Virus record (IMG/VR): IMGVR_UViG_3300001683_001688
Coordinates: 1-52,835 of that record
Length of the DNA: 52,835 nt
Source of the DNA: a virus
Lineage: Duplodnaviria > Caudoviricetes
Strand: one strand, 5' to 3'
The position numbers were made by a program, and so were the translations under genes. Below are positions 6,865 to 39,720 of the stretch, in pieces (position 1 is the stretch's first letter; the number at the start of each line of letters is the position of its first letter). The notes under the pieces are model-generated. The model made no database searches, was not told where the DNA came from, and was given only the letters and a program-made list of their open reading frames with translations.

Positions 6865-6867
6865 GCT

Positions 6868-8345: not shown

Positions 8346-8358
8346 GCTAAGGAGTGAA

Positions 8359-9335: not shown

Positions 9336-9352
9336 CAATTTTGAGGTTGTAA

Positions 9353-9955: not shown

Positions 9956-9962
9956 TGAAAAT

Positions 9963-10976
9963 ATGAAAAATATAATATTAGAATATGTGTGGCTTGACGG
10001 CTACTCCACGCAAAATTTAAGAAGCAAGATTAAGGTTTTGCATACTGATAATTTAAAGATCGACATTGAAGATGTTCCGGTTTGGAATTTTGACGGAAGC
10101 TCAACAAGACAGGCACCTGGATACGATTCAGAGTGCTTGCTTTCTCCCGTGAGGCTTTATGGTCTAACAGGAGGTTATCACTATGTGATGTGTGAGGTGC
10201 TGAATTCAGATGGCACTCCTCACGTTTCAAACTCAAGAGCTTTGCTTGCAGAGCTTGGGGATAATTTTAATGAAGCAGGGTTTTGGTGGGGATTCGAGCA
10301 GGAATATTTTATAACAAAAGATAAGAGTCCAATTGGTTTTCCGCAGACTGGGCATCCTGACTCACAAGGAAGATATTATTGCTCAGTTGGCGGAAGTAAT
10401 GCGATTGGTCGAGATATTGCTACCGCACATCTTTATAATTGCCTAAGGCTTGGAATAAAACTAACAGGTATAAATGCAGAAGTGGCTCCGTCACAGTGGG
10501 AGTATCAGTGCTTTGCTGAAGATACTCTTAAGGCTTGCGATGATCTCTGGATGAGCAGATATTTTCTGCTAAGAGCAGCAGAGAAAGAAGGACTAGATAT
10601 AGACTTTTCACCCAAACCAGTGAAGGGCGACTGGAATGGTTCCGGCTGCCACACAAATTTCTCAACTAGAGAGATGAGAAATATTGGTGGATATCCTCTT
10701 TTTAATGATGTACTAGAGAATTTTAGGGAATATCATAAAACTCACATGGGGCAATATGGTGAAAATAATGACCAAAGACTTACGGGAGACCACGAGACAC
10801 AAAAAATTAATATGTTCTCTTGGGGTATAGCTGATAGAGGCGCATCATTAAGGGTGCCATCATCTGTTCCTAATGATGACTGGAAGGGATATCTTGAGGA
10901 TAGAAGACCAGCATCAAATTGTGATCCATATAGTGTCGCATTAGAAATTGTTAAGTCAACTTTATTTCTTAGGTAA
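9963..10976 (+). CDS. glnII: glutamine synthetase type II
   Basis: EYVWLDG, WNFDGSST, GFEQEY, NAEVAPSQWEYQ, WNGSGCHTNFS, RLTGDHET, RGASLRVP, YLEDRRPASNCDPY; about 340 aa, the GSII size class. Confidence 0.92.
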   Translation: MKNIILEYVWLDGYSTQNLRSKIKVLHTDNLKIDIEDVPVWNFDGSSTRQAPGYDSECLLSPVRLYGLTGGYHYVMCEVLNSDGTPHVSNSRALLAELGDNFNEAGFWWGFEQEYFITKDKSPIGFPQTGHPDSQGRYYCSVGGSNAIGRDIATAHLYNCLRLGIKLTGINAEVAPSQWEYQCFAEDTLKACDDLWMSRYFLLRAAEKEGLDIDFSPKPVKGDWNGSGCHTNFSTREMRNIGGYPLFNDVLENFREYHKTHMGQYGENNDQRLTGDHETQKINMFSWGIADRGASLRVPSSVPNDDWKGYLEDRRPASNCDPYSVALEIVKSTLFLR

Positions 10977-11425: not shown

Positions 11426-12326
11426 GATTTTTTACAATAAGAGCTCTGCAGATAGTTTAGGGTGGGATCCTACGTGGTTTGGAGAGAAAGAGTTTGATAA
11501 TAACTTAATTACTGCAATTAAAAAGTGGCAGAAAGAAAAAGGATTAGTTGCAGATGGACTTTGTGGACCATCTACTTACAGAAGAGTATGGACAGAGAGA
11601 GATGCAGAGATTGATGAGTACAGACCCTACGATCACAAGAAAAAGGATAAAAGTTATATTGTTCATAATGGTCATTTTATTCCTATAAAGTGGGATAAAG
11701 TAGTCTTGTGGTCTGACAACGGAGGATTTAAAGCCCGAGCGGGAGCATATACAAGCTATGCAGGAAAACCTGACAGAAAGCCTATCATGTTTGTTAATCA
11801 TTGGGACGTGTGTCTATCGTCAGAGTCTTGCGCAAAGGTCTTAAACAAGAGAGGAATATCTGTTCACTTTCTTATTGATAACGATGGGACAATCTATCAG
11901 ATGCTAGACACTCAGCACAAGGCATGGCATGCAGGAATTTCAAATGGTGTCGGAGGCAACGAGAGAGGTGTCGGTGTAGAGATATCAAACGCGTATTACA
12001 CAAAGTATCAGTCGTGGTATGAAAGGCACGGATTTGGGGAAAGGCCGATACAAGAGAACGGTGTTGTCCATGGATCAACTCTTTCTCCGTTTATGGATTT
12101 TTACCCTGTGCAAATTGATGCTCTAAAGGCTCTTTGGCAGTCGATGCATGATGGGCTTAATATTCCTCTTAAATACCCGGAGACATCTGATGGAGAGCTT
12201 AACACGAGTGTTCACAAGGACTGTGTGCGCGGAAAGTTTGAAGGAATATGCAATCACTATAACTTCACGAAAGGGAAGATTGATTGTGCAGGTCTAGAGA
12301 TAGACAAGATTTTAGAAGACATGTAG
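11406..12326 (+). CDS. N-acetylmuramoyl-L-alanine amidase (Amidase_2) with peptidoglycan-binding domain
   Basis: PG_binding_1-like AIKKWQKEKGLVADGLCGPST; amidase motifs FVNHWD, SVHFLIDNDG, AWHAG, GVEISN, ICNH...KIDC. Confidence 0.85.
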   Translation: MSVAIDKIFYNKSSADSLGWDPTWFGEKEFDNNLITAIKKWQKEKGLVADGLCGPSTYRRVWTERDAEIDEYRPYDHKKKDKSYIVHNGHFIPIKWDKVVLWSDNGGFKARAGAYTSYAGKPDRKPIMFVNHWDVCLSSESCAKVLNKRGISVHFLIDNDGTIYQMLDTQHKAWHAGISNGVGGNERGVGVEISNAYYTKYQSWYERHGFGERPIQENGVVHGSTLSPFMDFYPVQIDALKALWQSMHDGLNIPLKYPETSDGELNTSVHKDCVRGKFEGICNHYNFTKGKIDCAGLEIDKILEDM

Positions 12327-12340
12327 CCTCGGGGTATAAA

Positions 12341-13057
12341 TTGTCATATGAGCGAAGAATTGTACTATACAGCGACAATGTGGGATCAGTTGAGTATGTA
12401 TCACATATGGGGACCGATCTTAGTGTTGTTAATAGTGCTAGGGTGTCTTTTGGAAAGAATAAAGCCGTTTTAGACAATAAAGATAAAAAACTTATACAGT
12501 ATCTTATTAAGCATAAACACACAAGCACACTTGAGCATAATGTTGTCACATTCCGTTTTTGTGTGCCCCTATATATCCGTAGCCAGCATCATCGTCACAG
12601 AACCTGGTCATACAATGAAATCTCTAGAAGATATACCGATATTGACATACGGTTCTATGAGCCACAAGAGTTTCGCACTCAACACAAATCAAATCGACAA
12701 GCATCTAATACTGAAGAAATGATCAATCCAATAATGATTCCAGATCTTTCTGATTCTGACTATGGAACGCACGCAAATCAAAGAATTTCTGAACACCACA
12801 TAACGTCAGTTAATCTATATAACGACTTAATGGCAAAAGGTGTTTGCCGAGAACAAGCCCGCGGAGTTCTTCCTCAGAATCTTTATACCGAATACTACGG
12901 CACAGTCAATCTGTCTAACCTCTTGAAGTTTATTGATCTGCGCACTCACGAGGGAGCACAATGGGAAATCCAGAAACTTGCCGAAGCCTGCTTGGACATC
13001 GCCACCGATTTGTGGCCAGTCACTGTGAATGCATACCGTGAGATAAGAGTCAGATAA
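12341..13057 (+). CDS. thyX: flavin-dependent thymidylate synthase ThyX (canonical)
   Basis: VNSARVSF, HTSTLEH, signature RHRTWSYNEISRRY, REQARGVLP, AQWEI; likely TTG start at 12341 after GGGGT. Confidence 0.93.
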   Translation: MSYERRIVLYSDNVGSVEYVSHMGTDLSVVNSARVSFGKNKAVLDNKDKKLIQYLIKHKHTSTLEHNVVTFRFCVPLYIRSQHHRHRTWSYNEISRRYTDIDIRFYEPQEFRTQHKSNRQASNTEEMINPIMIPDLSDSDYGTHANQRISEHHITSVNLYNDLMAKGVCREQARGVLPQNLYTEYYGTVNLSNLLKFIDLRTHEGAQWEIQKLAEACLDIATDLWPVTVNAYREIRVR

Positions 13058-13102: not shown

Positions 13103-14065
13103 ATGCAGACTTTAGATAGACTAAGAATGCTTATTGAGAGGAACGGTGGCTTTGTGAATGCCCACGCTCATTTTGATAGAGCCTACACTGCTCAAACAAG
13201 CGACTTTGAGAATAACAATGTTAATGCTCATCTGTTTAAAAAGTGGGAGCTAGTCAATAAGTTTAAGTCCGAATCAAGTATAGAGAGATATTACAATCAC
13301 ATCTCAGAAGCCATCGCTATTCAGGTTAAGATGGGATGGAGTAACGCTGCCCTTAGTTTTATTGACTGCGATCAGATAAGTGAGAACAGAGCGCTCACAG
13401 CTGCCCTTAAAGCCAAGAGAGACTGGGAAGGCACATATGATCTTAAGATCGCATGTCAAACCTTACAAGGTGTTTTGGAACCAGAGCCTCGTAAATGGTT
13501 TGATAAATACGCTGGTGCTTTTGATGTTATCGGTGGATTGCCTCGTAAAGATGAAGGCCGAGAGGCCGAACATATTGATGTCTTGATGAAAACAGCAAAG
13601 TGTAATGGGCAAAGAGTTCATGTTCACGTAGATCAATTGAATTCTTCAGACGAGAAAGAGACTGAACTTCTTGCGCGCAAGACAATAGAGCACGGAATGG
13701 AGGGAAGGGTTACAGCAGTGCATAGTATTTCATTGGCATGCCATCCTGAGAAATATCGCAAAGAAGTTTATAAGATGTGCCTTGATGCTGACTTAAGTTT
13801 TATTTCTTGTCCTACTGCTTGGATCGATCATCGACGAAATGAAAGATTGACCGTCACTCACAATGCGATTACTCCTATTGATGAGATGGTCCCTCTCGGT
13901 CTCTGTGTAGCAATCGGCTCTGACAATATATGTGATGTTTATAAGCCATTTTCTGATGGCGATATGATGGCTGAGCTACGATTCCTTCTTGAGGCGACAC
14001 ATTTTTATGATATCGATTCACTAGTTAAGATCGCCACAGAGAATGGAAGAAAGATTATCTCTTAA
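13103..14065 (+). CDS. metal-dependent amidohydrolase, cytosine deaminase (CodA)-like
   Basis: FVNAHAHFD (HxH), VIGGLP, HVHVDQ, AVHSISL, AIGSDN; strong RBS GGAGA. Confidence 0.78.
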   Translation: MQTLDRLRMLIERNGGFVNAHAHFDRAYTAQTSDFENNNVNAHLFKKWELVNKFKSESSIERYYNHISEAIAIQVKMGWSNAALSFIDCDQISENRALTAALKAKRDWEGTYDLKIACQTLQGVLEPEPRKWFDKYAGAFDVIGGLPRKDEGREAEHIDVLMKTAKCNGQRVHVHVDQLNSSDEKETELLARKTIEHGMEGRVTAVHSISLACHPEKYRKEVYKMCLDADLSFISCPTAWIDHRRNERLTVTHNAITPIDEMVPLGLCVAIGSDNICDVYKPFSDGDMMAELRFLLEATHFYDIDSLVKIATENGRKIIS

Positions 14066-26072: not shown

Positions 26073-26447
26073 ATGCAAGACAAGCTTAAAATAATGTTTG
26101 GACTAAGAGAGCAATTTATGAATTCTCTTAGCGAGAAATTACCAGACACAAATCCGTCGTTTCCTCTTGACTTGTCAGAAAAAGTCAACCAGCAATATGT
26201 TAGAGATATTGCGCTAAGAGGAGTCGAAGAGATGTTTGAAGCTTTACAACATCTTAAAAACTGGAAGCCCCATAGAGAAACTGAAAATAAAGATTTCAAT
26301 AGAGATGAGTTTCTTGAAGAGATTGTAGATTCATTTAATTATTTTTTCTCACTTCTAATATTATCAGGATTTGACTCAGAGGATCTTTTCCAAGCATATA
26401 TCAAAAAGGATCAGGTTATTCATGAGAGACTCAAAGACGGATACTAG
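26073..26447 (+). CDS. all-alpha NTP pyrophosphatase (MazG / dimeric dUTPase / T4 gp56 dCTPase-like)
   Basis: EEMFEA...LKNWKPHR...EEIVDSFNYF: ExxE and ExxD metal motifs plus a WKP loop. Confidence 0.75.
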   Translation: MQDKLKIMFGLREQFMNSLSEKLPDTNPSFPLDLSEKVNQQYVRDIALRGVEEMFEALQHLKNWKPHRETENKDFNRDEFLEEIVDSFNYFFSLLILSGFDSEDLFQAYIKKDQVIHERLKDGY

Positions 26448-26686: not shown

Positions 26687-27625
26687 ATGTCAAGTAGAAT
26701 AAAAAATCTTTTTGAAATTCAGAGATTATTCAATAAAGAGATCTATGGGTCCAATCTAAGTGATGAAGATCTTGATAGGTTTACACAGGATCTTGCACTC
26801 TGTGCACATTCAGAGATTAGCTCCTTAATATCAGCAACGCAATACAAGAAACATCACTCATTTAAGGAGCCTGCTGGTCTCAATGAGTCTCGAATAGTTT
26901 ATGAGTCTGTTGATGTTATAAGATATATCATGGCCATTCTTAATCTTTGGGATGTTGATTTCGCTAGATTTGAAGAAGCGTTCTATAAAAAAGATATCTA
27001 TCTACATGCTAGAAGAGATATTGATAATAGCAGATGGATGAGACAGCCTGTTGTAATAGTTGATATTGATGATGTTCTAGCAGAGTTTAGAGAGGGTTTT
27101 GCTCATTGGCTTGAAAAGACATACTCTCTTGATGTTGATATAGAGAGCCCAGAGTATTATTTTATAGATGCACTAAAAGACAAAGGACTTAATCCAGAAA
27201 AAACATTTCTTGACTTTGTTGATCAAGGCGGATTTTTCAATATTAAGCCAATAGCTGGTGCGATTAATTTTCTAAAAAATTTACAAGACCAGGGATACTG
27301 GATTCACTTGTTAACAGCTAGGCCTGAAGATAATTTAACTTGTCTATATGACACATACGCGTGGTTAGCTAAGTACGATATTCCTTTTAATGACATCTCG
27401 TTCTCTGCTGAAAAATTTAGATGGTGTGCGCAGTCAAAGTATTATGATACAGGGTCAATTATTATGACAATTGATGATTCACCAAAGCATGCAACTGAGT
27501 ATGCAATCCATGGATTACCATGCCTAGTCCCTGAAAAATCTTATAATAGAAAAATATGGAATACAGACAATGTTTTCGCGTATAGAGATTTTGACTTCGC
27601 TTTTGATCTTATTAAATCTTTATAA
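26687..27625 (+). CDS. MazG-like domain fused to HAD 5'(3')-deoxyribonucleotidase
   Basis: N-terminal HSEISSL...YESVDVIRY (degenerate MazG); C-terminal IVDIDDVLAEF, LLTARP, EK, IDDSPK (HAD motifs I-IV). Confidence 0.75.
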   Translation: MSSRIKNLFEIQRLFNKEIYGSNLSDEDLDRFTQDLALCAHSEISSLISATQYKKHHSFKEPAGLNESRIVYESVDVIRYIMAILNLWDVDFARFEEAFYKKDIYLHARRDIDNSRWMRQPVVIVDIDDVLAEFREGFAHWLEKTYSLDVDIESPEYYFIDALKDKGLNPEKTFLDFVDQGGFFNIKPIAGAINFLKNLQDQGYWIHLLTARPEDNLTCLYDTYAWLAKYDIPFNDISFSAEKFRWCAQSKYYDTGSIIMTIDDSPKHATEYAIHGLPCLVPEKSYNRKIWNTDNVFAYRDFDFAFDLIKSL

Positions 27626-27696
27626 GATTTGAAATTTATGTTATAAAACAGCAGCAACGTTTAGTATATTAAACATGTAAATCGCAAGGAGAAACA

Positions 27697-28680
27697 ATGC
27701 CGCGTAATAATAACTTAGAGCCTATTGTATTGCCAATGGATCTAAAGTTTGACGAGCCTTCAATAACAACATTTAAGAATAATCTAGAAGCTTTGAAGGT
27801 AGAGCTTATAGATTGTCCTACTACAGAGCAGGCAAGAAATGTCGCGTGGCACTACGTTAAGGCAACCTGGGCAGATACGCCAGAAGAGATCACAGCAGAA
27901 GGTGTACCTGACTCTCTAAAAAGTAAGAATCTTCTTGATGTGCTTCAGTTTAGAGCTTTACCAACTCCTATGGAATGCCTAAGCTTTACATTTAGATTGT
28001 CTGGTCTTTCTTTTCAGGAAGTGACCCATATTATTAGACACAGGGCGGGATCATTTGCAGCTCAGTGCACTGGAGATAGAGATCTAAGAAATGATGATGC
28101 TGTTATTCCAGAGTCTATTGAAAATTCTCCTGAGTTTTTAGAGAGATATAAGGAAATTGTCTGTCTTTCTAAAGAGCTCTACTCTGATATGACTGATTCA
28201 AAAACTGTATCAATGATGGACGCTAGAATGATAATGCCTAAGTGCTTAACTTCATTCTATTATATGCGTCTAAATCTCAAGGATCTTATCGGATTTATCA
28301 GACAGCGACAAGATGTGCAAATTCAACCAGCTGCTGATAACATCCTAGCAGTCAGGATGGCGATAGAGGCATGCAAGGCTGTCCCAGAGCTAACTCAAGT
28401 ACTTAACTTTAATGCACCAGATATGCACTATATCAAGACATTCAGAGTCAAAGAGGGAGACAAATGGATTAGCAGAGGTACTAATTTGTACTGGCCAGAA
28501 CCGAAGAATGATACTTTTGATTATCATCCAGCAGACACAATCTATCAGTGTAAGAGAGAGGATTTAAATGGAACTCACGGAACTGGAGAGAAGATTTTTA
28601 CAACAATGTGGAGAGATCTCATGATTGACTTTGAATATCTCAAAGAAAATTACAATAATTCTTTCAACAGGGGGAACTAA
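27697..28680 (+). CDS. divergent ThyX-fold flavoprotein (second paralog)
   Basis: PTPMECLSFTF, HIIRHRAGSFAAQCTGDRD, MMDARMIMP, NLKDLIGFIRQR, plus a C-terminal extension; AAGGAG RBS. Confidence 0.8.
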   Translation: MPRNNNLEPIVLPMDLKFDEPSITTFKNNLEALKVELIDCPTTEQARNVAWHYVKATWADTPEEITAEGVPDSLKSKNLLDVLQFRALPTPMECLSFTFRLSGLSFQEVTHIIRHRAGSFAAQCTGDRDLRNDDAVIPESIENSPEFLERYKEIVCLSKELYSDMTDSKTVSMMDARMIMPKCLTSFYYMRLNLKDLIGFIRQRQDVQIQPAADNILAVRMAIEACKAVPELTQVLNFNAPDMHYIKTFRVKEGDKWISRGTNLYWPEPKNDTFDYHPADTIYQCKREDLNGTHGTGEKIFTTMWRDLMIDFEYLKENYNNSFNRGN

Positions 28681-29126
28681 TGAGAAAGATTTATCTGGCA
28701 TCTGGGTGGTTTAATTCTACACAGGCAGAAGAGCTTACGAGACTTGAGAAAATTTGTGACGATAGAGACTGGATTGATCTTGCATCACCAAGAAGAATAT
28801 TTGTTTGTCCGCCAGGTGCACCTAAAAAGGCACAAGATGAAACTTTCTCAGGAAATTTGCATCATATTAAGACTGCAGATTTTTTAATTGTTAACACTAG
28901 GGATAAAGACATAGGGACAATCTGGGAAGCAGGTTATGCATATGCAAATAATATCCCTATTGTCTACTTTTGTCAAGGACTTCCTGCTGGAGCTAAGTTT
29001 AATCTTATGCTTGCACGAAGCGGAGTGAAAGTATGCACATCTTTTAAGCAGCTTGAAGACTACCTAGATAGATGCTTTGAGTCAAAGATGCTTATAGCAG
29101 AAATGTATGATAAGGAGATTGAATAG
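28680..29126 (+). CDS. nucleoside 2-deoxyribosyltransferase / dNMP N-glycosidase family
   Basis: KIYLASGWF, DIGTIWEAGYAYA (nucleophile Glu), FNLML. Confidence 0.85.
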   Translation: MRKIYLASGWFNSTQAEELTRLEKICDDRDWIDLASPRRIFVCPPGAPKKAQDETFSGNLHHIKTADFLIVNTRDKDIGTIWEAGYAYANNIPIVYFCQGLPAGAKFNLMLARSGVKVCTSFKQLEDYLDRCFESKMLIAEMYDKEIE

Positions 29127-29131
29127 GCACA

Positions 29132-29608
29132 GTGGAATATGAAATAATCTTATTGCAGATATTGTTAACGTGGATTTACGGTCACGTAGCTGAATACTCT
29201 TTACATAGGTGGGCTCTTCATAAGATAGGCGCAAAGAGAGGACACCCATTCTCATTTCATTTTTATTCACATCATAAAAACTCTAGATTAAATAGCTATA
29301 AAGATAGTGCGTATCAAGGTTTTCCATTGCGGTGGGATGCTGCTGGAAAAGAATTGCTATCTCTTTTAGGTCTATTATTATTACACTCACCGTTATATTT
29401 TTATTTCCCGTGGGTATTTCTTACCATAGTATTCTCTATGTGTAGCTATTACTATACACATAGCAGATCACATAGAGATCCAGAGTGGGCAAAGAAAAAT
29501 ATTCCATGGCATTTTGATCATCATATGGCATTAAATCAGAATATGAACTACGGTGTTAGAAGTGACATAATAGATAGAATAATGGGTACTAGAGAAAAAA
29601 TGGCCTAA
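29132..29608 (+). CDS. fatty acid hydroxylase / sterol desaturase family membrane protein
   Basis: His boxes EYSLHRWALH, HFYSHH, YYTHSRSH, WHFDHH and NYGV...DRIMGT. Confidence 0.8.
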   Translation: MEYEIILLQILLTWIYGHVAEYSLHRWALHKIGAKRGHPFSFHFYSHHKNSRLNSYKDSAYQGFPLRWDAAGKELLSLLGLLLLHSPLYFYFPWVFLTIVFSMCSYYYTHSRSHRDPEWAKKNIPWHFDHHMALNQNMNYGVRSDIIDRIMGTREKMA

Positions 29609-30759: not shown

Positions 30760-33700
30760 ATGTCAATTATTATTCCAAAGAGATTCGTTGGTCTCCATGC
30801 TCACTGCGGGACTGGTTCACCTTATGATGGATTAGGTTACCCAAATCAACATATAGATTTTGTTCTTTCAAATGATATGAATGCTTGGGCATTAACTGAC
30901 CACGGTAATGGAAACGGTCTAGCTCACGCTCATACTTATGCAAAGCAGCTAAAGAAAAAAGGTGTAGGCTATAGACAGATCTACGGCGTTGAATTTTACT
31001 TTGTTCCATCTTTAAATGAGTGGAGAGTCCAGTATGAGGATCATAGAGAGTCAGTTCGGCTAGCAAGAGAAGAGAAAAAGCTAAAAGAGATTACGGATAT
31101 CAACTCTGAAGATGAGGTCTCTGGAGGTCTTATCATTGAAAATGAGGAGGAGACAAAGTCTGATTTTGATACAAATAACTGGAAGCGTAGATATCATCTA
31201 GTTGTTTTGGCTAAAAACAAGAAAGGTCTTGAGAATCTTTTCACACTTGTAAAGAAATCATACACAGATGGGTTTTATAGATTTCCAAGAATTGATTTTG
31301 ATCTTTTAAAGCTTCACAATGAAGGGCTTATTGTTAGCACTGCATGTATTGGTGGCTACCCTGCATCTCTAATAGCAAGGGGTGAATCATCTGGAAAGTC
31401 AGATAAAAATATTGTTCTCGATCTAGAGAACATGTCTGATAGATTTGTAGATGCAGTGGGTGAGGAAAATTTTAATCTAGAGATTCAATTTAACTCTTTG
31501 TCAATGCAACACAAGACAAACAAGCATCTAATTGCGCTTCATGAGAAGACTGGTATTCCACTTGTAGCTACTGCTGATAGTCATTATTATAGCAGGGACA
31601 TGTGGGAAGCAAGAGAGCTTTATAGAAAACTTGGAAGAATGGGATCTAGAGGTGATGCAATGCCATCTCTTCCTGCGTTTGAAGATTTAAAATGTGAACT
31701 CTACCCGAAGAATGCAACGCAGATGTGGAACGAGTTTAACGAGCATGTTTCTGAGTATCCTTTCTATAAGGGGAAAGAGCAGATAATATGCGATGCAATT
31801 GAAAGAACATACGACATTGCATGGGATCAGTGTGAAGAAGTCTGGTTTGATGAAGAGGCAAAGCTTCCTAACTTTGATACACCGGGAAATCCTGCCTTTA
31901 ATCAACTTGTAACTAGAGTGAAAAAGGGTCTTGCTGACGAAGGTCTTGATAAGAAGCAAGAATATGTTGATCGTGCAAAGATGGAGCTTGAAGATATAAA
32001 GTATCTTGGCTTTGAGAATTACTTTCTTACAATGACAAAGGTATTTGATCTCGCATCACAGAGTACTATTATTGGACCAGGAAGAGGTTCTGGAGCAGGG
32101 TCTTTAGTAAACTATCTACTCGGGATTACAACGACTGATCCGATCAAGTATGGTCTTCTTTGGGAGAGGTTTCTTCACAGAAAGAAAGCTGGATGGCCAG
32201 ACATCGACACAGATGCGGGCGATAGAGATGTTTTAATCAACGCTTCTAGAGAGTTATTCGGAGAAGAATCTGTTGTTCCTGTATCTAATTTTAACACTCT
32301 GAAGCTTAAATCTCTAATCAAAGATGTCTCAAAATTCTACGGAATTGACTTTGGTGAAGTCAATGCTATGACAAATAAACTTGAGAAAGAGGTAATGCAC
32401 AAGGCTATGGGAGATCATGAAGAGAAGTCAACATACATTTTGACTCATGAGGATTGCATGAAATACTCTTCTGGATATTCAAACTTTATGGAGAAATATC
32501 CAAAGCTCTGTGAGCATGTTCAAAATCTCTTTATGGAATCACGCTCTATTGGGCGACATGCTGGCGGAGTTCTAATCTGCCCAAATCTTGAGAAGTATAT
32601 GCCGGTTATTAAGGTAAGAGGCGAACTTCAAACTCCGTGGTCTGAAGGTATGAATTTTAGACACTTGGAGCCAAACGGATTTCTAAAGTTTGATTTCCTC
32701 GGGCTTACAACACTCAAGATGGTTGAGGACTGTATACGATTAGTTTTAAGAAAGCAAGGCGCTGAAAATCCAACATTTTCTGATATAAGCAAGTACTTCG
32801 ACGATAATATTAATTGCAGGTATAATGATCTAGATGACCAAAAGGTGTGGGAGCATGTATACCACAAGGGCAGGTTTGTACAGATATTCCAATTCACTCA
32901 GCAGGGTGCTAGAAAGTTTTGCAAGCGAGCAAAGCCAAAAACGATTGAAGAGCTGGCTACTATCACAGCAATCTATAGACCAGGACCTCTTGCAGCTCAT
33001 GTAGATAAGAAGTATGTTAAGACTAAAAAATCAGTTGAGGCTGGCAACCCAATAGAGTATGATCATCCGGTAATTGAAGAGATTCTTAGTGAGACATATG
33101 GCTTCATATCATTCCAGGAGCAGTTTATGTTGCTAGGTCAAAAGCTTGCTGGGTTCGACAAGGGAGCATCTGATAAGATGAGAAAGACTCTGGTTAAGAA
33201 GTCTCTAGACTCTAATGCAGCAAAAGTTCAAGAGAGAATTGATCTTAGGAAGAAGTTTGTTGACGGAGCAGTTAATCTGTCTGGCATGGATAGATCTAAG
33301 GCTGAAAAGCTATATGAGACTATTGAGTTCTTCTCTGGGTATGGATTTAATAAGTCGCATGCAGTATCTTATGCAATTGACTCATATTACTCTGCGTGGC
33401 TTCACACTTACTTTGAAAAGGAGTGGCTTGCAACTTGTTTGCAGACCATGAACGGGTCTAGCAAGTTTGGAAAGATTATCGCAGAGATCAAAGCATTAAG
33501 GTACAAGATATTGCCGCCAGATATTAACTCCTCTTCTGATGTGTGGGTGTACAGTGAAGATAGAGGAGGATTTGTACCTCCTTTGACTGCTATCAAAGGA
33601 GTAGGATCTGCTGCTGTACGTGAGATGATGTCAAGGCGTCCATTTAAAAACCTTGATGAGATAATGTTTTCAGAGACTGGATCATGGGTTCCGTCTAAGA

Positions 33701-34314
33701 TGAACAAGACTTGCTTTGACTCTCTTTGTAAGGTTGAGGCATTTGGATCTCTTGAAGAGTTTACCTCTGGAATTGTTAAAAATCACAATCAGCTTCACGA
33801 GACAATTGTTGGAAACTATGACTTAATCAAAAAAGGTAGACACGGAATGACAAAGACAGCAGCAAAGAGGATGATGAAAGAGAGAGGAAAGGTTCCTGAC
33901 TTTATACCTGAGAAGCTTAGGGAAAATCAAGATATTGAAGACTGGTCAAGGACAGCTAAGATTGGTCATAGCGTAGAGCTGATGGCCACGGCTGATGAGA
34001 CTCTAGTTTTTCCTCAAGCTATCATGTCCAAGATAGAAAAGTCAAATCTTCGCGCTGCAACAAAGCTATCAGGAAAAGAGAGGGATGTTGTCTGGTTTTG
34101 CATATCTTCAATCGAAGAGAGAACAACAAAGAACAACAAACTTTTCTATAGGATGAAGGTCATAGATAATAACTCTCAGAGTTGCTGGATTCGTGTCTGG
34201 GGATCCTTCAAGCAGATACCTGAGTTGTATACCATATGGCTGGCAGAGGTGGCCTCTACTGACTCCTGGGGATGCTCAACATCATCGTATAAGATGAAGA
34301 AGATAGAACTTTAA
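30760..34314 (+). CDS. dnaE: DNA polymerase III alpha subunit (family C)
   Basis: PHP domain (LHAH, LTDHG, ATADSHY), GPGRGSGAGS, catalytic PDIDTD, GRHAGG, KFDFLGL, YGFNKSHA, HhH IKGVG. Confidence 0.95.
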   Translation: MSIIIPKRFVGLHAHCGTGSPYDGLGYPNQHIDFVLSNDMNAWALTDHGNGNGLAHAHTYAKQLKKKGVGYRQIYGVEFYFVPSLNEWRVQYEDHRESVRLAREEKKLKEITDINSEDEVSGGLIIENEEETKSDFDTNNWKRRYHLVVLAKNKKGLENLFTLVKKSYTDGFYRFPRIDFDLLKLHNEGLIVSTACIGGYPASLIARGESSGKSDKNIVLDLENMSDRFVDAVGEENFNLEIQFNSLSMQHKTNKHLIALHEKTGIPLVATADSHYYSRDMWEARELYRKLGRMGSRGDAMPSLPAFEDLKCELYPKNATQMWNEFNEHVSEYPFYKGKEQIICDAIERTYDIAWDQCEEVWFDEEAKLPNFDTPGNPAFNQLVTRVKKGLADEGLDKKQEYVDRAKMELEDIKYLGFENYFLTMTKVFDLASQSTIIGPGRGSGAGSLVNYLLGITTTDPIKYGLLWERFLHRKKAGWPDIDTDAGDRDVLINASRELFGEESVVPVSNFNTLKLKSLIKDVSKFYGIDFGEVNAMTNKLEKEVMHKAMGDHEEKSTYILTHEDCMKYSSGYSNFMEKYPKLCEHVQNLFMESRSIGRHAGGVLICPNLEKYMPVIKVRGELQTPWSEGMNFRHLEPNGFLKFDFLGLTTLKMVEDCIRLVLRKQGAENPTFSDISKYFDDNINCRYNDLDDQKVWEHVYHKGRFVQIFQFTQQGARKFCKRAKPKTIEELATITAIYRPGPLAAHVDKKYVKTKKSVEAGNPIEYDHPVIEEILSETYGFISFQEQFMLLGQKLAGFDKGASDKMRKTLVKKSLDSNAAKVQERIDLRKKFVDGAVNLSGMDRSKAEKLYETIEFFSGYGFNKSHAVSYAIDSYYSAWLHTYFEKEWLATCLQTMNGSSKFGKIIAEIKALRYKILPPDINSSSDVWVYSEDRGGFVPPLTAIKGVGSAAVREMMSRRPFKNLDEIMFSETGSWVPSKMNKTCFDSLCKVEAFGSLEEFTSGIVKNHNQLHETIVGNYDLIKKGRHGMTKTAAKRMMKERGKVPDFIPEKLRENQDIEDWSRTAKIGHSVELMATADETLVFPQAIMSKIEKSNLRAATKLSGKERDVVWFCISSIEERTTKNNKLFYRMKVIDNNSQSCWIRVWGSFKQIPELYTIWLAEVASTDSWGCSTSSYKMKKIEL

Positions 34315-34385: not shown

Positions 34386-35291
34386 GTGATAACTTTTCCA
34401 ATTAGAAATCTATTCATAGAGGGTCCAGATTGCTCTGGAAAAACAACTCTCGTAAGAGACATACATAATTCGACAGACTTTAGGCTTCATATTCATGACA
34501 GATCACAAATTTCAAGAAAGATATTTAGTGATCTATATAATAGAGACTTAGATTTTATTGATGATGATCTTCATGCAGAGCTATCAAATCTAAATAATAG
34601 ATTTATATTTCTTCTTCCTCCTTTTAATATAATAAGAGAGAGATATATTCAAAGAGGCGATGATTTTCATAGTGACATATCTTCAATAAGAAAAGTATAC
34701 GATGCTTTTCTAGATTCAGAATCAAAGTTTAGTGGATACCCGAACGTAAGATACTACATAACACCTGATACTAAAAACCTTGTTTACGGAATAATGTTTC
34801 AGTTAAACGTGATGAGAGAGAAAAATATCCTTGACATTGCTGAAGAGGTGAATCAGTTTGTTAATTTTTCAGGAGGGGAATCTTACCCGCTATCTTTTAC
34901 AATCTATGATAATGGAAAATTTGAAAATGCTGATTCTAACATATTAAAATATGAACCAGAGGCTAAATACTATGAAAAGATATTTACATCATTTCACGAA
35001 AAGATCACAAATGAACTTAATGGAAAAAATGAGTACAATAGGAGAGAGGATTATTCTTCAAGACGCTTTGTGCACACTAACGATAGCTGTATATCATTTA
35101 TACAGGCATCTGTAAGAAATAATATACTTGACTTTCATGTAGTTATAAGGTCATCAGATGTAAAGAGGGTTTTTCAATACGATATGATATTCCTCTACTA
35201 TCTTGCTAGCACGTGCTTTGAAAGGTTTAGCGATCATTGTAGCTCAGTAAGATTAAGATTTAACTTAAACTCTGCTCATATCATAGAGTAA
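34386..35291 (+). CDS. dNMP-kinase-like P-loop domain fused to minimal thymidylate-synthase-fold domain
   Basis: N-terminal FIEGPDCSGKTT and HDRS; C-terminal SSRRF...DSCISFIQ...LDFHVVIRSSDV..VFQYD...NSAHI, matching TS core motifs. Confidence 0.75.
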   Translation: MITFPIRNLFIEGPDCSGKTTLVRDIHNSTDFRLHIHDRSQISRKIFSDLYNRDLDFIDDDLHAELSNLNNRFIFLLPPFNIIRERYIQRGDDFHSDISSIRKVYDAFLDSESKFSGYPNVRYYITPDTKNLVYGIMFQLNVMREKNILDIAEEVNQFVNFSGGESYPLSFTIYDNGKFENADSNILKYEPEAKYYEKIFTSFHEKITNELNGKNEYNRREDYSSRRFVHTNDSCISFIQASVRNNILDFHVVIRSSDVKRVFQYDMIFLYYLASTCFERFSDHCSSVRLRFNLNSAHIIE

Positions 35292-35315: not shown

Positions 35316-36326
35316 ATGAGAAAAGCGCTAGTTACTGGAGGATGTGGTTTCATAGGGTCAAACTTGACACACGAACTTGTGAAACAAGGTTGGCAGGTTG
35401 ATATAGTAGATGATATGTCAAATGGTCATCTTGAGCTACTTGAAGGTCTAAAGATAAGGGTTATTCCTGTTGACTTACTAGAATCATTCTATGATATGAT
35501 CAACACAACGAATAGAGTCTCAGAAACAGTTCATGTAATACAAGGTGATTTTGCTCACGAGGGCATATGCAAAAATATATCTGAAAAGATGTATGACATA
35601 GTTTTTCACCAAGCAGCTATTCCAAGAGTACTATTCTCAGTTGAAAACCCTTCTTTAACAACTAATGTAAATATAGGTGCAACAACAAGACTATTTGAAG
35701 CATGCATTGGAAATGTTGACAGGGTCGTATTCGCATCATCATCTTCAGTATACGGAGGTGCATCAATTCTTCCAACACTAGAGACTACAGAGAAGAGTCC
35801 AAAATCACCTTATGCTTGGCAAAAGCATTCAATAGAGGATCTTGCAAAGATATTTTGCAACTTGTATGATATTGATATTGTTTGCTTGAGATATTTTAAT
35901 GTTTTCGGTCCAGGTCAATATGGAGACTCTCCGTACTCTACAGCAGTATCTGCATGGTGTCATTCGATTAAAAATAGCTTACCAATGAGAAGCGATGGCG
36001 ATGGAACGCAGTCTAGAGATCTCTGCTATGTTGACAATACAGTTCAAGCAAATATCCTAGCAGCGACATCAGATCAGTCAAGTCATGGAGGCTTCAATGG
36101 AAGATGTTATAATATAGCTTGCGGCGATAGAACTACAAATAATGAAATTTTAGATTTCTTTACAGAGAGATATACGCATGCTATTGTAAAAAATGCACCG
36201 TGGAGGGCTGGAGATGTTATGCATACCCAGGCTGATGTCTCTAGTGCAAAGGAAGATTTTGGGTATGAGCCAGCTGTTAGATTCTGGGATGGGCTTAATA
36301 GAACAATAGAGTGGTGGAATATCTAG
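35316..36326 (+). CDS. NAD-dependent nucleotide-sugar epimerase/dehydratase
   Basis: VTGGCGFIG, FASSSSVYG, YAWQK (YxxxK), LRYFNVFGP, GDGTQSRD. Confidence 0.92.
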   Translation: MRKALVTGGCGFIGSNLTHELVKQGWQVDIVDDMSNGHLELLEGLKIRVIPVDLLESFYDMINTTNRVSETVHVIQGDFAHEGICKNISEKMYDIVFHQAAIPRVLFSVENPSLTTNVNIGATTRLFEACIGNVDRVVFASSSSVYGGASILPTLETTEKSPKSPYAWQKHSIEDLAKIFCNLYDIDIVCLRYFNVFGPGQYGDSPYSTAVSAWCHSIKNSLPMRSDGDGTQSRDLCYVDNTVQANILAATSDQSSHGGFNGRCYNIACGDRTTNNEILDFFTERYTHAIVKNAPWRAGDVMHTQADVSSAKEDFGYEPAVRFWDGLNRTIEWWNI

Positions 36327-36743
36327 ATGCCAGATTTATATGATAAGAAACACGTAAAAACTTCGTGGATTTCAAGAAAAGCAAAAAAAGTTGAAAAGCC
36401 ATGGGGGCATGAATTATCATGGACAGCATTTAGCGGAATCTTTGGAAAAACACTTTTCATAAGAAAAGGATGCAGAACAAGCTTGAAATATCACAATATT
36501 AAATCAGAAGCTTTGTTTTTAAGATCTGGGTCTGCAATGATTATTCACGGAGATGAGTTATTTGTTACATTGCCATTGATATACCCACTTGAAGAATCTT
36601 TGTTTTCACAAGGTGATACTCTGCATGTTCAATCAGGGTCTCCTTATAGAATAATAGCGCTAGAAGATTGCGAAATAGTTGAGATAGGAAATCAAGTAGA
36701 TAGTTCACCAGTAAGATTAGAGGATGACTATGGCAGAGCGTAA
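36327..36743 (+). CDS. cupin, mannose-6-phosphate isomerase-like
   Basis: VEKPWGHE, TSLKYHNIKSE, VRLEDDYGR. Confidence 0.75.
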   Translation: MPDLYDKKHVKTSWISRKAKKVEKPWGHELSWTAFSGIFGKTLFIRKGCRTSLKYHNIKSEALFLRSGSAMIIHGDELFVTLPLIYPLEESLFSQGDTLHVQSGSPYRIIALEDCEIVEIGNQVDSSPVRLEDDYGRA

Positions 36744-37308
36744 TGAGTATATAAGAATACCAGAGTTTATCATATATACTGGTCCAATGTTTGGATCAAA
36801 GACAACAAAGTTAATAGCAGCTGTTGATAGATTTAGGTATCAAGATAGAAATATTTTAGCATTTAAGCCATCTCTAGACGAAAGATATTCAAGTTCAGAA
36901 ATTTGTACTCACAATGGTGCAAGAGTTGATGCTTTTGTTGTTAAGTCAGGTGGCGATATAATTAGAATAGTTAATGATACCAGCGACGTTGATGTCGTTG
37001 CAGTTGATGAGGCTTTTATGATAGATGGTGTAGCAGAATCTCTTCTTACTCTATTTAGAGAGGGAAAAACAATAGTAGTTTCATCTCTTCAACTGTCTGC
37101 ATCTGGAAATGTATTTGAAGAGATAAAAGATATGATGCCCTGGGCTACAAAGATAGAGGTGTGCCCTGCAGTTTGCACAGTAAGCGGTTTAGATGCGTAT
37201 TATACACATAGAAAATTTGAAAATATGAAAGAGATAACTGTTGGCGGTTCAGATCTCTACGAGCCTAGATGCTGGTTTTATCACGGATTTATGAATCAGC
37301 ATTCTTAA
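36730..37308 (+). CDS. tdk: thymidine kinase
   Basis: GPMFGSKTT, DERY, THNG, VAVDEAF, VGGSDLYEPRC. Confidence 0.9.
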   Translation: MAERNEYIRIPEFIIYTGPMFGSKTTKLIAAVDRFRYQDRNILAFKPSLDERYSSSEICTHNGARVDAFVVKSGGDIIRIVNDTSDVDVVAVDEAFMIDGVAESLLTLFREGKTIVVSSLQLSASGNVFEEIKDMMPWATKIEVCPAVCTVSGLDAYYTHRKFENMKEITVGGSDLYEPRCWFYHGFMNQHS

Positions 37309-37323
37309 TTTAAGAGGTATTTT

Positions 37324-38328
37324 ATGATTGAACCTAACAGTGTTAATTGTGTGATATATCACGCAGACTGTACTGATGGTTTTGGTGCAGCATACTCAGC
37401 GTGGAAGCTACTGGGAAATCGTGCTGAGTACTACCCTTGTAAACATGGATCACATCCCCCAAATGTTATCGGAAAGCGAGTAGTTATACTTGATTTTTCA
37501 TTTGGAAATCAAACAATAAAGAATATGATTAATGAAGCTGAAAGTCTTCTTGTAATAGACCATCACAAGTCTGCAATGGTTGAGCTTCATGACATTTCAA
37601 ATACTCATTTTGATATGACAAAAAGCGGAGCAATGCTTACATGGGAATATTTCCATCCAGGAAAAGAGCCGCCCAAATTTATCAAGTACATACAAGATAG
37701 AGATTTATGGAAGTGGGAGCTTGAATATTCAAAAGAATTCAGCGCGGCATTTGATATGGTTCCGTTTGAATTTGAGGAATTTGAAAAGTTTGAAGATGAC
37801 TCTGTCTTTGACGATGCAGTAAGAAGAGGCTCATATATTCTTGCCTACTCTAAGACTGTTATTAAAAAAGTGTGCGAGAAAGCATCTAGAAGAAGGTACA
37901 GCGGAATGGATGTTCTTGTTGTTAATTCTTCTCACTGGATGTCAGAGATCGGTGCAAGACTTTCACCAGATTGTGATTTTGCAGTGATATGGTACTATGA
38001 TCACGAAGATAGAATGATTAAGGTTAGCCTAAGATCTTTTCATGATAGAATAGACGTATCAGAGATAGCAAAGAGGTTTGGCGGCGGCGGACACAAAAAA
38101 GCTTCTGGGTTTCAATTGTCTGGAGAGCTTATCGTAGATGATATCTTTGATGTATTCGACGGAGAAGATCATCAGGTCGACGCTAGCAAAGTTGAAGAGA
38201 TTCGAGTTGATCTTGAAAATTTGACAAAAAAAGCTTCAGAGGCAGGTGTATCTGTTGTATCAGACATAGATGGACACACAGCTGTAGTCGTACAAGGTGT
38301 ATCAAGTGGATCGTCCGAAGTGGGATGA
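37324..38328 (+). CDS. DHH/DHHA1 phosphoesterase
   Basis: YHADCTDG, ILDFS, IDHH, DRDLW, SLRS, GGGGHKKASG. Confidence 0.88.
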   Translation: MIEPNSVNCVIYHADCTDGFGAAYSAWKLLGNRAEYYPCKHGSHPPNVIGKRVVILDFSFGNQTIKNMINEAESLLVIDHHKSAMVELHDISNTHFDMTKSGAMLTWEYFHPGKEPPKFIKYIQDRDLWKWELEYSKEFSAAFDMVPFEFEEFEKFEDDSVFDDAVRRGSYILAYSKTVIKKVCEKASRRRYSGMDVLVVNSSHWMSEIGARLSPDCDFAVIWYYDHEDRMIKVSLRSFHDRIDVSEIAKRFGGGGHKKASGFQLSGELIVDDIFDVFDGEDHQVDASKVEEIRVDLENLTKKASEAGVSVVSDIDGHTAVVVQGVSSGSSEVG

Positions 38329-38743: not shown

Positions 38744-39019
38744 ATGCAGACACTTGATGCAAAGGATGTTCAATATATTATTGATATGATTCTATTAAAA
38801 AATGAAAATCTTGGTCAAGATATATTTGCCGGAAGTGGAAAAAATAAAAAAATCGTTGTAAAAGATGGATTAAAAGTTCGCCATATTCCAACGGGTCTTG
38901 TATATACAGTAATAGAGTATATTAATGATGATTCTTCTGGGCCAGCTATTAGATGCTCTCGCCCAGGAAAAGAAATTGTGATTCCTAGCAATGAATTTAA
39001 CAAGTATGTGAGGCACTAA
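38744..39019 (+). CDS. hypothetical protein (SH3/KOW-like C-terminus)
   Basis: GLKVRHIPTGLVYTV beta-barrel pattern; GGGAG RBS. Confidence 0.6.
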   Translation: MQTLDAKDVQYIIDMILLKNENLGQDIFAGSGKNKKIVVKDGLKVRHIPTGLVYTVIEYINDDSSGPAIRCSRPGKEIVIPSNEFNKYVRH

Positions 39020-39720
39020 TGTCAAAATTTACAAACAATGACCTTAAAAAGTCGATAAAAAATAGTCTAAACTTAGACACAAAAGAAGAAAATCGATTAG
39101 ATGAATCTTATGTTGTCCAAGATAAACAGTTTAATTTATCAACTGAGCTATTAAGTGAGGCAAATAAAAATAACCATATAGAACTCTATAATAAATATGT
39201 CAAAAATTTCAATAGAATAAGTGCTGAGCTTGATACGGTTGATAGAAAATCTGCTTCATCAAACTTTTCTAATTATAGGTCGCTTAAGATTGATGAAACA
39301 TATAACCTAAACGGTGTATATCTTCACGAGCTTTACTTTGCAAATATATCAGATTTGCAAAGTCAGATATCTATGGACTCTATTTCATATATGCGCCTTG
39401 CTAGGGATTTTGGATCTTTTGACGCTTGGCAGGATGATTTTATAGCTTGTTGCTTGTCCAATCAATGTGGATGGGCAGTAACATATTACAATACTTACTT
39501 AAAGAGTTATGTCAATTGCTTCATAGATCTTCATAGTATAAATGTTCCATTTGGAACATACCCTGTTATAGTTATGGACACGTGGCAGCATGCATACTAT
39601 AGGGACTACTTAAAAGATGTAAAGACGTATACTTATGGAATGATGAAACAGTTAAACTGGAATATCATTGAGAAAAGATTTAACAAAGCTGAAAAGATAG
39701 CTACAGCTCTAAGAGGATAG
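39019..39720 (+). CDS. Fe/Mn superoxide dismutase-like protein
   Basis: HIELYNKYV, YLHELYFANI, FGSFDAW, GWAV, VMDTWQHAYYRDY, LNW. Confidence 0.8.
   Translation: MSKFTNNDLKKSIKNSLNLDTKEENRLDESYVVQDKQFNLSTELLSEANKNNHIELYNKYVKNFNRISAELDTVDRKSASSNFSNYRSLKIDETYNLNGVYLHELYFANISDLQSQISMDSISYMRLARDFGSFDAWQDDFIACCLSNQCGWAVTYYNTYLKSYVNCFIDLHSINVPFGTYPVIVMDTWQHAYYRDYLKDVKTYTYGMMKQLNWNIIEKRFNKAEKIATALRG

Follow-up and report, generated by a model that had tools for sequence, protein, structure and literature searches.

A second ThyX-like gene in a 52.8-kb virus contig

IMG/VR record IMGVR_UViG_3300001683_001688 is a 52.8-kb contig from a virus of the Caudoviricetes, an uncultured deep-sea jumbo phage, and we analysed the whole record (positions 1 to 52,835), which we call the window. 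It carries two genes of the ThyX family. The second of them, at 27697..28680, is the subject of this study and is referred to as the variant; an earlier examination of the letters alone (the sequence-only reading) had proposed that it is a ThyX paralog whose fold has been repurposed away from synthesis of thymidine monophosphate (dTMP). The features needed to compare the two copies are as follows:

27697..28680, plus strand: ThyX-variant gene, 327 amino acids (aa), with a 43-aa N-terminal lead, a Thy1 domain at residues 44-230 and a C-terminal extension at residues 235-327
27686..27692, plus strand: Shine-Dalgarno-like AAGGAGA, 4 bases upstream of the ATG at 27697, read from the DNA
12284..13057, plus strand: canonical ThyX (RHRTWSYNEISRRY), 169.9 bits to TIGR02170 (cut-off 87.9), phrog_85 at E value (E) 1.4e-62

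Pfam Thy1 (PF02511) matches the variant across residues 44-230 (E 1.1e-18; 68.1 bits against a cut-off of 24.8) and leaves ~95 residues on the C-terminal side, in agreement with the extension of about 90 aa first noticed. By contrast with the canonical copy, the variant falls below the cut-off of the NCBIfam thyX equivalog model TIGR02170, reaching less than half of it (40.4 vs 87.9 bits), and the two proteins share 31% identity across just 78 residues. A six-frame scan located the motif RHRAGSFAAQCTGD at 28036 in the variant and RHRTWSYNEISRRY at 12593, inside the open reading frame (ORF) 12284..13057. Two translational features described earlier were confirmed in the DNA: a strong ribosome-binding site of the gene's own, AAGGAGA, and a TAATG coupling to a deoxyribosyltransferase, in which the final A of the stop codon TAA is also the first base of the ATG of ORF 28680..29126, a member of Nuc_deoxyrib_tr (PF05014, E 1.1e-13).

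PHROGs, NCBIfam and Atlas name the variant "thymidylate synthase" alone, and a cluster listing of 10 diverse variant members gives one generic name. Elsewhere the window encodes a UvsX-like recombinase, DnaB, ribonucleotide reductase, a prohead protease and an endolysin. Four of the 19 sequencing runs listed for words sampled from the window contain at least half of those words (hydrothermal vent metagenomes, one of them possibly the source of the contig), and no RNA run is among the 19.

The variant keeps the ThyX fold and has a rebuilt catalytic loop

An AlphaFold2 model of the variant, built from an 83-row alignment (A1), has a predicted local distance difference test score (pLDDT) of 96.7 and a predicted template modelling score of 0.92. 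Foldseek comparison with solved structures returned as best matches only ThyX proteins or the ThyX paralogue PolB, with probability 1.00 for the top ThyX, E from 1.9e-10 to ~2e-8, 15-20% identity and template modelling scores of 0.63-0.76 by target length. Pfam Thy1, the predicted fold and the Foldseek matches together bear out the identification of a second ThyX paralog.

HMMER aligned the variant to Thermotoga maritima ThyX at E ~5e-5. In this alignment, L88, T90 and E93 of the variant correspond to His53, Thr55 and Glu58; R114-H115-R116 to Arg78-His79-Arg80; A121/A122 to Asn85/Glu86; C124, G126 and D127 to Ser88, Arg90 and Tyr91; and R177 and R204 to Arg147 and Arg174. Of the ThyX motif RHRxxSxxxxSxRY the variant thus retains RHR and the first Ser, with Ser88 changed to Cys, Arg90 to Gly and Tyr91 to Asp, as had been read from the sequence. 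The stretch corresponding to ThyX 86-97 has become C-T-G-D-R-D-L-R, and the rebuilt active-site loop within the Thy1 domain reads RHRAGSFAAQCTGDRDLR.

The retained residues Arg78, Arg80, Arg147, Arg174 and Glu58 are ones that we take to be the nucleotide- and flavin-contacting residues of ThyX, Arg78, Arg147 and Arg174 presumably being the arginines that grip the nucleotide. The replaced residues belong to the catalytic network. According to PMC11940539, Tyr91 and Ser88 are critical and strictly conserved, flavin oxidation is 1000-fold slower when Tyr91 is mutated, Arg90 is believed to tune Tyr91, and His53 stacks on the folate pteridine and hydrogen-bonds Tyr91 and Asn85. This His53/Asn85/Ser88/Arg90/Tyr91 network is wholly replaced in the window's variant.

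We counted residues across the family in an L-INS-i alignment of 82 sequences, comprising 46 variants, 26 canonical ThyX proteins and 10 "intermediate" forms. His53, Ser88, Arg90 and Tyr91 are invariant in all 26 canonical proteins, and the same columns in the 46 variants contain:

His53 column: Leu 43, Met 3, His 0
Ser88 column: Cys 33, Gly 5, Ser 4, Thr 2; Ala also seen
Arg90 column: Gly 37, Arg 2
Tyr91 column: Asp 37, Tyr 0
Retained positions: Arg78 46/46, Arg80 45/46, Arg147 46/46, Arg174 46/46, Glu58 43/46

An arginine (Arg131) located 2-5 residues past the Arg90 position is conserved in 34 of the variants. The family can be recognised by the signature R-x-R-x(3-5)-[FY]-S-[QA]-Q-C-[TS]-G-D-x-D-x-R; constant across it are the G-D-x-D-x-R loop and the absence of the His, Arg and Tyr. 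The Cys is not constant; it occupies the Ser88 position in 58 of 89 members of a second, larger set. We considered Cys124 as an obligatory ThyA-like nucleophile and rejected this as a general mechanism, since a residue present in only 33 of 46 members is unlikely to have such a role. The C-terminal extension is conserved in distant members as P-[DE]-x-x-H-D-x(3)-W-N-P-x-x-F-x-Y (WPEPKNDTFDYHPADTIY in the window's variant), and the N-terminal MPRN start recurs among distant members as well.

Variants form a deep clade found in phages and Patescibacteria

Searching 1.84 billion cluster representatives (50% clustering) gave 534 matches at E<=1e-3, of which 41 reached E<=1e-30, and 90% clusters contained 1012 relatives at E<=1e-3, the best 120 of which are 78-91% identical. 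To place the variants relative to canonical ThyX, we used a quick maximum-likelihood tree (LG+G4, 82 rows) in which every third of 70 canonical loci sequences was taken. A branch of length 0.74, with 100 in the Shimodaira-Hasegawa-like approximate likelihood-ratio test (SH-aLRT), parts a 56-row clade from canonical ThyX; this clade consists of the 46 variants and the 10 intermediate forms, which have Ser88 and lack Tyr91. The window's canonical copy falls with canonical ThyX. Because the two copies lie on opposite sides of this deep branch, and given their 31% identity over 78 residues, we rejected a recent duplication of the phage's own ThyX as the origin of the variant. Against 31 close homologues, the rate of nonsynonymous substitution (dN) was 0.13-0.39 and that of synonymous substitution (dS) was saturated in 29 pairs, leaving finite dN/dS values for two pairs only (0.07 and 0.11); judged by these comparisons, the gene is under purifying selection.

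Close relatives, at 58-83% identity, occur on 31 contigs in IMG/VR, the longest of 202 kb; one more locus, L033, gave a 35% partial match and was left out of the close set. CheckV puts the 202-kb contig at 70% completeness, which implies a genome near 290 kb. Among 50,697 GenBank phage records, a close relative of full length turned up in Geobacillus phage GR1 alone (44.8% identity, with 96% of the query covered), and the remaining 40 matching records give partial matches at 24-32% identity. GR1, whose host is G. stearothermophilus ATCC 10149, is the sole cultured carrier, all others being uncultured.

When a profile of distant members (A2) was run against prokaryote genomes, one per species, it yielded 80 loci, five of which have the C-[TS]-G-D loop: three in Patescibacteria metagenome-assembled genomes (MAGs) and one each on a Gammaproteobacteria and a Sphingobacterium MAG contig. 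In one Patescibacteria MAG (locus L036), the variant resides on a 454-kb contig a few kilobases from ychF, rpsF and ssb. There, positions 6620-10913 hold an ORF with a Rossmann-type GGGISGL start overlapping a MazG-like ORF, then the variant, a Tmk-like kinase, a small ThyA-like protein, a protein of the uracil-DNA glycosylase (UDG) family and a Nudix protein, followed by ychF, rpsF and ssb; the same gene set is present in L034. This chromosomal cluster may be a prophage remnant or a cellular DNA-modification system.

Single-linkage grouping at 55% identity sorted the 52 loci with the variant loop, window included, into 12 lineages, spanning jumbo phages, 36-45 kb phages, GR1 and Patescibacteria.

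The variant belongs to a conserved nucleotide-metabolism module

Around the variant, the window encodes:

26073..26447, plus strand: MazG/dUTPase_2-type all-alpha nucleoside triphosphate pyrophosphohydrolase (PF08761 E 2.6e-5; phrog_12184 E 2.9e-19)
26687..27625, plus strand: MazG-like part (phrog_173, residues 4-106) fused to an NT5C-type 5'-deoxynucleotidase of the HAD family (PF06941 E 2.4e-10, residues 121-293)
28680..29126, plus strand: nucleoside 2-deoxyribosyltransferase (NDT)-family gene, NDT-like (PF05014 E 1.1e-13; PDB 6evs E 6.9e-9)
29132..29608, plus strand: fatty-acid-hydroxylase-superfamily (di-iron) protein, 158 aa (PF04116 E 4.9e-10)
30760..34314, plus strand: DnaE-type DNA polymerase III alpha (tblastn to phage DnaE genes)
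34386..35291, plus strand: Tmk-like P-loop kinase (FIEGPDCSGKTT) fused to a mini thymidylate-synthase domain of the ThyA superfamily (mini-ThyA), directly after DnaE
35316..36326, plus strand: NAD-dependent sugar-nucleotide epimerase/dehydratase (PF01370 E 1.2e-46), kept after the kinase fusion in close loci
36724..37308, plus strand: thymidine kinase (PF00265 E 8e-34)

The order MazG, MazG-NT5C, variant, NDT-like and then DnaE is retained across the 31 close loci, with MazG in 29, MazG-NT5C in 28, the NDT-like gene in 30 (<=2.1 kb downstream; the one miss, L028, ends inside the variant) and DnaE in 21, many flanks ending early. The NDT-like protein keeps a Glu (WEAGYA) that aligns with the Glu of the "E-L-G" motif of solved NDTs.

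Counting genes within 6 kb of the variant across the 12 lineages, we found a cluster of MazG/dUTPase_2-type pyrophosphatases in nine lineages (46 of 52 loci) and a cluster of Tmk-like P-loop kinases also in nine. The other three (lineages 0, 1 and 11) have kinases that BLAST did not join to this cluster, namely the window's at 34386, L036:8864 (Thymidylate_kin, 32.7 bits) and the annotated P-loop NTPase of GR1. A linked trio of pyrophosphatase, candidate enzyme for modifying a deoxynucleoside monophosphate (dNMP) and dNMP kinase is present in the window (26073, 26687, 27697 and 34386) and, apart from the gaps in these counts, recurs across the 12 lineages. The NDT-like gene is near the variant in four lineages, and in most lineages the module is directly upstream of a DNA polymerase of the PolA, PolB or DnaE type. 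Phylogeny and neighbourhood, which the sequence-only reading had named as a check, thus reveal a deep separate clade with a module conserved in 12 lineages.

Accessory genes vary and are of kinds typical of DNA hypermodification. S-adenosylmethionine (SAM) methyltransferases near the variant are of the Methyltransf_23, TylF O-methyltransferase or FkbM types depending on lineage, with TylF or other SAM methyltransferases adjoining it in lineages 2, 3, 4 and 7; sugar-nucleotide enzymes or a glycosyltransferase occur in lineages 0, 2 and 11; and a gene resembling FAD synthetase/cytidylyltransferase is part of the lineage-2 module. UDG-superfamily domains, free or fused to the kinase, lie near the variant as well (two of four scored above the Pfam cut-off and two below), and further lineage-specific accessories include a radical-SAM protein and sugar-nucleotide epimerases. 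The GR1 neighbourhood is annotated with a glycosyltransferase, an HD protein and a nitroreductase, the nitroreductase-type gene preceding the variant.

Several arrangements in these neighbourhoods were recorded in passing. At L125:5407-6753, L118:2603-3814, L144:5382-6728 and L040:3703-4659, a pyrophosphatase of 319-449 aa lies upstream of the variant and begins with a Rossmann-type GxGxxG (IIGGGISGL); a C-terminal dUTPase_2 domain scored in two of the four scanned. By cluster membership this Rossmann-MazG fusion, which is undescribed, also occurs in lineages 1, 2, 4 and 7-10. The GGGISGL domain has no Pfam match and was sought in the window without being found there. Small PolA phages (lineages 3-7) fuse the Tmk-like kinase to a UDG-superfamily domain (L117:8415-9299, L116:4564-5544), and in the two examples scanned the Pfam UDG score is 21-23 bits, slightly under the cut-off. 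The fatty-acid-hydroxylase-superfamily gene, which sits between the NDT-like gene and DnaJ in the window, has homologues in two of the 31 close loci: L032 (adjacent) and L002 (after DnaE).

Further from the variant, window positions 35316-38328, after the kinase fusion, hold the epimerase/dehydratase, a 138-aa unknown protein, the thymidine kinase and a DHH/DHHA1 phosphoesterase, and 39019-39720 encodes a protein with only the C-terminal domain of Fe/Mn superoxide dismutase. Tandem ORFs at 6868-7596 and 7593-8345, adjoining ribonucleotide reductase, match phrog_3347 (galactose-3-O-sulfotransferase; E 2e-12 and 1e-14) and no Pfam family, and may have a sugar- or DNA-decorating role. An amidohydrolase-family ORF (PF07969/PF01979) at 13103-14065 directly follows the canonical ThyX.

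The module kinase is fused to a cytosine-type mini-ThyA domain

In the fusion protein at 34386..35291, the N-terminal half is the Walker-A kinase part FIEGPDCSGKTT, which is matched by a deoxynucleoside kinase structure, and the C-terminal 150 residues form the mini-ThyA domain, in which Cys235, Arg255-Ser256, Asp258, Asp266 and His298 were identified. The domain matches proteins of 170-188 aa encoded after the variant, or after its kinase, in other lineages, and Jackhmmer found it in six of the 12 (0, 1, 2, 4, 7 and 11). In Patescibacteria, kinase and mini-ThyA are separate adjacent genes. Two mini-ThyA proteins match Pfam thymidylate synthase (PF00303) at 30.9 and 25.9 bits over profile positions 101-210, and the Cys, Arg-Ser, Asp and His are invariant among these domains.

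A PDB profile search with mini-ThyA gave weak matches, all to thymidylate-synthase relatives (9iqu/9iqc at E 0.009, T4 dCMP hydroxymethylase at E 0.014; dCMP, deoxycytidine monophosphate). The AlphaFold2 model of the fusion (pLDDT 92.0) is matched best by 9iqu, the dCMP hydroxylase AfhB of phage HY126 with dCMP (E 1e-6), next by 9iqc, a riboflavin-dependent monooxygenase with dCMP and FAD, and lower by T4 dCMP hydroxymethylase and MilA. The invariant mini-ThyA Asp, Asp266 in the window, aligns with Asp179 of T4 dCMP hydroxymethylase. Asp at the position of E. coli ThyA residue 177 specifies cytosine; within the ThyA family, replacing Asn177 by Asp puts a hydrogen-bond acceptor where a donor had been. 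The window's mini-ThyA lacks the D169N signature, having at ThyA position 169 an Asp (Asp258) that is invariant in nine lineage-0 sequences; Asn appears in this column only in L126, L118 and L001. Asn at this position is reported in PMC13326640 as diagnostic for 5-hydroxy-dCMP synthases.

These findings raise the possibility that the variant is a flavin-reducing or flavin-delivering partner of an AfhB-like mini-ThyA, oxidising NAD(P)H and passing reduced flavin to the mini-ThyA, which would hydroxylate C5 of dCMP. The flavin dependence of AfhB and the 9iqc enzyme, the best structural matches of the fusion, fits such a partnership, as do the adjacency of mini-ThyA genes to the variant in six of 12 lineages, the loss of the folate-stacking His53, the nitroreductase-type gene before the variant in GR1 and the FAD-synthetase-like gene in lineage 2; PMC13326640 also states that the RB69 and DLP3 5-hydroxy-dCMP synthases bind flavin only loosely. 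However, a mere reductase would need neither the invariant Arg147 and Arg174 nor the new G-D-x-D-x-R loop, and the window's mini-ThyA has Asp258 in place of the Asn that the same source calls diagnostic. A mini-ThyA profile (A4) found no match in three of four complete variant-bearing phage genomes (G010, G011 and G019), nor in the 80% complete G012; it did find one in G014, itself a row of the A4 model. Its non-detection in the three complete genomes argues that the variant is not a mere accessory of mini-ThyA, and we regard the partnership as distinctly unlikely. Complex prediction for the variant with the mini-ThyA domain scored 0.00 and was not used as evidence either way.

The variant often accompanies an ordinary thymidylate synthase

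Among 21 carrier genomes or records checked, nine have an ordinary thymidylate synthase alongside the variant: the window, G006, G008, G019 and all five cellular genomes (G001-G005), which also hold canonical ThyX, a tandem double-Thy1 ORF or ThyA. G006 and G008 are two of four large jumbo-phage fragments, the other two being 54% and 37% complete, and G019 is a complete 95.9-kb genome with the variant and a canonical ThyX-type copy. The tandem frames are found in Patescibacteria (G003:C9:1524-2882 and G004:C13:8208-9542, 721 and 557 aa), each with two Thy1 domains, besides the variant. Five incomplete genomes (G012, G013, G015, G016 and G018) gave a single match in a search for Thy1 alone.

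Most of the complete phage genomes count against a repurposed enzyme. G010, G011 and G014 (36-45 kb, with terminal repeats) and GR1 carry the variant alone, with no ThyA, making it the sole thymidylate-synthase-like gene in four of five complete phage genomes; a divergent genuine dTMP synthase is therefore possible for those phages. The sequence-only reading had held that variants as the only thymidylate synthase of a genome would tell against it, and the result is split between these four genomes and the nine double carriers. Phages can rely on host dTMP, so phages with the variant alone neither prove nor exclude thymidylate-synthase activity.

If the variant were such a divergent but genuine flavin-dependent thymidylate synthase, its module would boost thymidine triphosphate (dTTP) for the neighbouring polymerase and other loop residues would replace Arg90 and Tyr91. 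The composition of the module equals a dTTP pathway, the nucleotide-binding arginines are intact, the databases label the protein thymidylate synthase, and the conserved Arg131 (34/46) could stand in for Arg90. Yet His53, Arg90 and Tyr91 are missing from 46, 44 and 46 of the 46 variants and invariant in the 26 canonical proteins, and mutation of Tyr91 alone costs 1000-fold in flavin oxidation (PMC11940539). The canonical enzyme is also kept in nine of 21 carriers, every cellular one included, the equivalog score is less than half the cut-off, and the methyltransferases, UDG-like domains, radical-SAM protein and cytosine-type mini-ThyA have no role in dTTP supply. On balance, we consider a genuine thymidylate synthase unlikely.

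A candidate ThyX-based route to modified DNA

The interpretation that we favour, at about even confidence, is that the variant is a flavoprotein of the ThyX fold that has been neofunctionalised: having given up dTMP synthesis, it would modify a pyrimidine dNMP at C5 and so catalyse the committed step in a pathway that modifies DNA bases before replication. Repurposing is suggested because the nucleotide and flavin contacts are kept, the catalytic loop is rebuilt, the folate-stacking His is lost, the normal enzyme coexists and the place in the module is fixed. The sequence-only proposal of a repurposed ThyX thus gains from the residue losses, the equivalog score, the deep branch, the co-occurring thymidylate synthases and the module; its emphasis on the Cys change did not hold up across the family.

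In the proposed pathway, the MazG-type pyrophosphatase would turn a canonical deoxynucleoside triphosphate into the dNMP, and the variant would hold this dNMP against reduced FAD and transfer a one-carbon unit (or oxygen) to C5. The ThyX reaction passes through an exocyclic methylene that is then reduced by FADH2, according to PMC8989533. Since an Asp-rich loop stands in the variant where ThyX has His53 and the acid system of Tyr91, Ser88 and Arg90, hydride reduction would give way to another fate for the exocyclic-methylene (or flavin-adduct) intermediate, the simplest being hydration to 5-hydroxymethyl; we infer that a loop not supporting methylene reduction could give a hydroxymethyl product. 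The Tmk-like kinase would then phosphorylate the product for the phage's own polymerase.

In the window's phage, dCMP is a more likely substrate than deoxyuridine monophosphate (dUMP), because the change from Arg-Tyr to Gly-Asp swaps a hydrogen-bond donor for an acceptor, because the kinase has a cytosine-type mini-ThyA domain as its fusion partner and because a normal ThyX and a thymidine kinase are kept for dTTP supply. In its fuller form, to which we assign somewhat less than even confidence, the proposal is of the first ThyX-based DNA base-modification system, making a C5-modified deoxycytidylate (5-hydroxymethyl, 5-hydroxy or a further derivative) that the kinase and phage polymerase would insert into DNA. 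It would extend across ~290-kb vent and ocean jumbo phages, 36-45 kb phages, a Geobacillus phage and Patescibacteria chromosomes, and would in some lineages be paired with a stripped-down cytosine-type ThyA domain.

Alternatively, the variant could act as a flavin monooxygenase that depends on O2 and, without folate, by itself places a hydroxyl on C5 of dCMP or dUMP; methylation or glycosylation of that hydroxyl would follow. Loss of His53 in all 46 variants suits this chemistry, as do the TylF O-methyltransferase or SAM methyltransferases beside the variant in lineages 2, 3, 4 and 7 and the sugar-nucleotide enzymes or glycosyltransferase in lineages 0, 2 and 11, and PMC13326640 offers the precedent of a TS-superfamily (thymidylate synthase) enzyme switched to flavin/O2 hydroxylation. 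However, a Leu or Met in place of His53 could still allow packing against a pterin, we identified no residue pattern specific to C4a-hydroperoxide chemistry in the variant, and the same accessory genes suit a hydroxymethyl product equally. We hold a monooxygenase to be improbable.

Other observations join the sole-variant phages in weighing against neofunctionalisation towards C5 modification. No modified base is known for any carrier. A set of MazG, ThyX and thymidylate kinase also has the look of an ordinary dTTP-supply module, the module kinases match the thymidylate kinase family at 28-33 bits, and the terms MazG and ThyX are co-mentioned in marine phage genome papers. Where both proteins occur, it could be the AfhB-like mini-ThyA that actually modifies the base. 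Without His53 the variant may not use folate at all, and with Cys in 33 of 46 variants a general ThyA-like covalent mechanism is unlikely. In some lineages the UDG-family partners, of a kind that PMC13697223 reports for phages with T-modified genomes, point to a possible uracil-derived product rather than to cytosine chemistry.

Relation to known systems and implications

The variant resembles ThyX/FDTS (flavin-dependent thymidylate synthase; EC 2.1.1.148, T. maritima TM0449 and Mycobacterium tuberculosis ThyX) in fold, Pfam family and Arg78/Arg80/Arg147/Arg174/Glu58. It differs in the replacement of His53, Asn85/Glu86, Ser88, Arg90 and Tyr91, in ~43 extra N-terminal and ~95 extra C-terminal residues that are conserved in the family, in its score under the equivalog cut-off, in its separate deep branch and in standing beside a canonical ThyX in the same genome. 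A precedent for a second, neofunctionalised ThyX with altered substrate range is PolB, the UMP/dUMP methylase of polyoxin biosynthesis (4p5a/4p5b; PMC5954106). PolB has a fold like that of the variant (Foldseek rank 7, E 7.8e-10), with a sequence match of just E 0.37; it still methylates uracil nucleotides and, unlike the polymerase-linked phage module, serves a nucleoside-antibiotic cluster.

In logic and gene set, the module parallels T4 cytosine replacement (gp56 dCTPase, gp42 dCMP hydroxymethylase and gp1 dNMP kinase) and the 5-hydroxy-dCMP pathway of RB69, DLP3 and HY126, and its mini-ThyA resembles AfhB and gp42, with their cytosine-specifying Asp. In the T4 and RB69 types, however, the modifying enzyme is of the ThyA superfamily, as are all described modifying enzymes of such pre-replicative pathways according to PMC13326640, whereas the module described here has a ThyX-fold protein at the core position. 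Its ThyA-like part, unlike the T4 and RB69 enzymes, is cut to ~150 residues and went undetected in G010, G011, G012 and G019.

Full-text literature searches, which leave supplements that might list such genes uncovered, found no description of this ThyX clade, and literature searches found no paper on Geobacillus phage GR1. In the available portions of PMC5954106, PMC7824862, PMC8989533 and PMC13326640, PolB is the only neofunctionalised ThyX mentioned.

If the proposed function is correct, it would provide a second, independent route to hypermodified DNA, with a ThyX-fold enzyme beside those of the ThyA superfamily, and would extend flavin-mediated transfer of a one-carbon unit (or oxygen) to a new product. 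In some lineages, enzymes from two unrelated thymidylate-synthase superfamilies would be paired. Since every current annotation of the family reads thymidylate synthase, the metabolism deduced for many viral and Patescibacteria genomes is probably mistaken where this gene is concerned. The cultured carrier, GR1, makes the question directly testable, and modified DNA of this kind would bear on escape from restriction and CRISPR and on the sequencing of environmental viruses.

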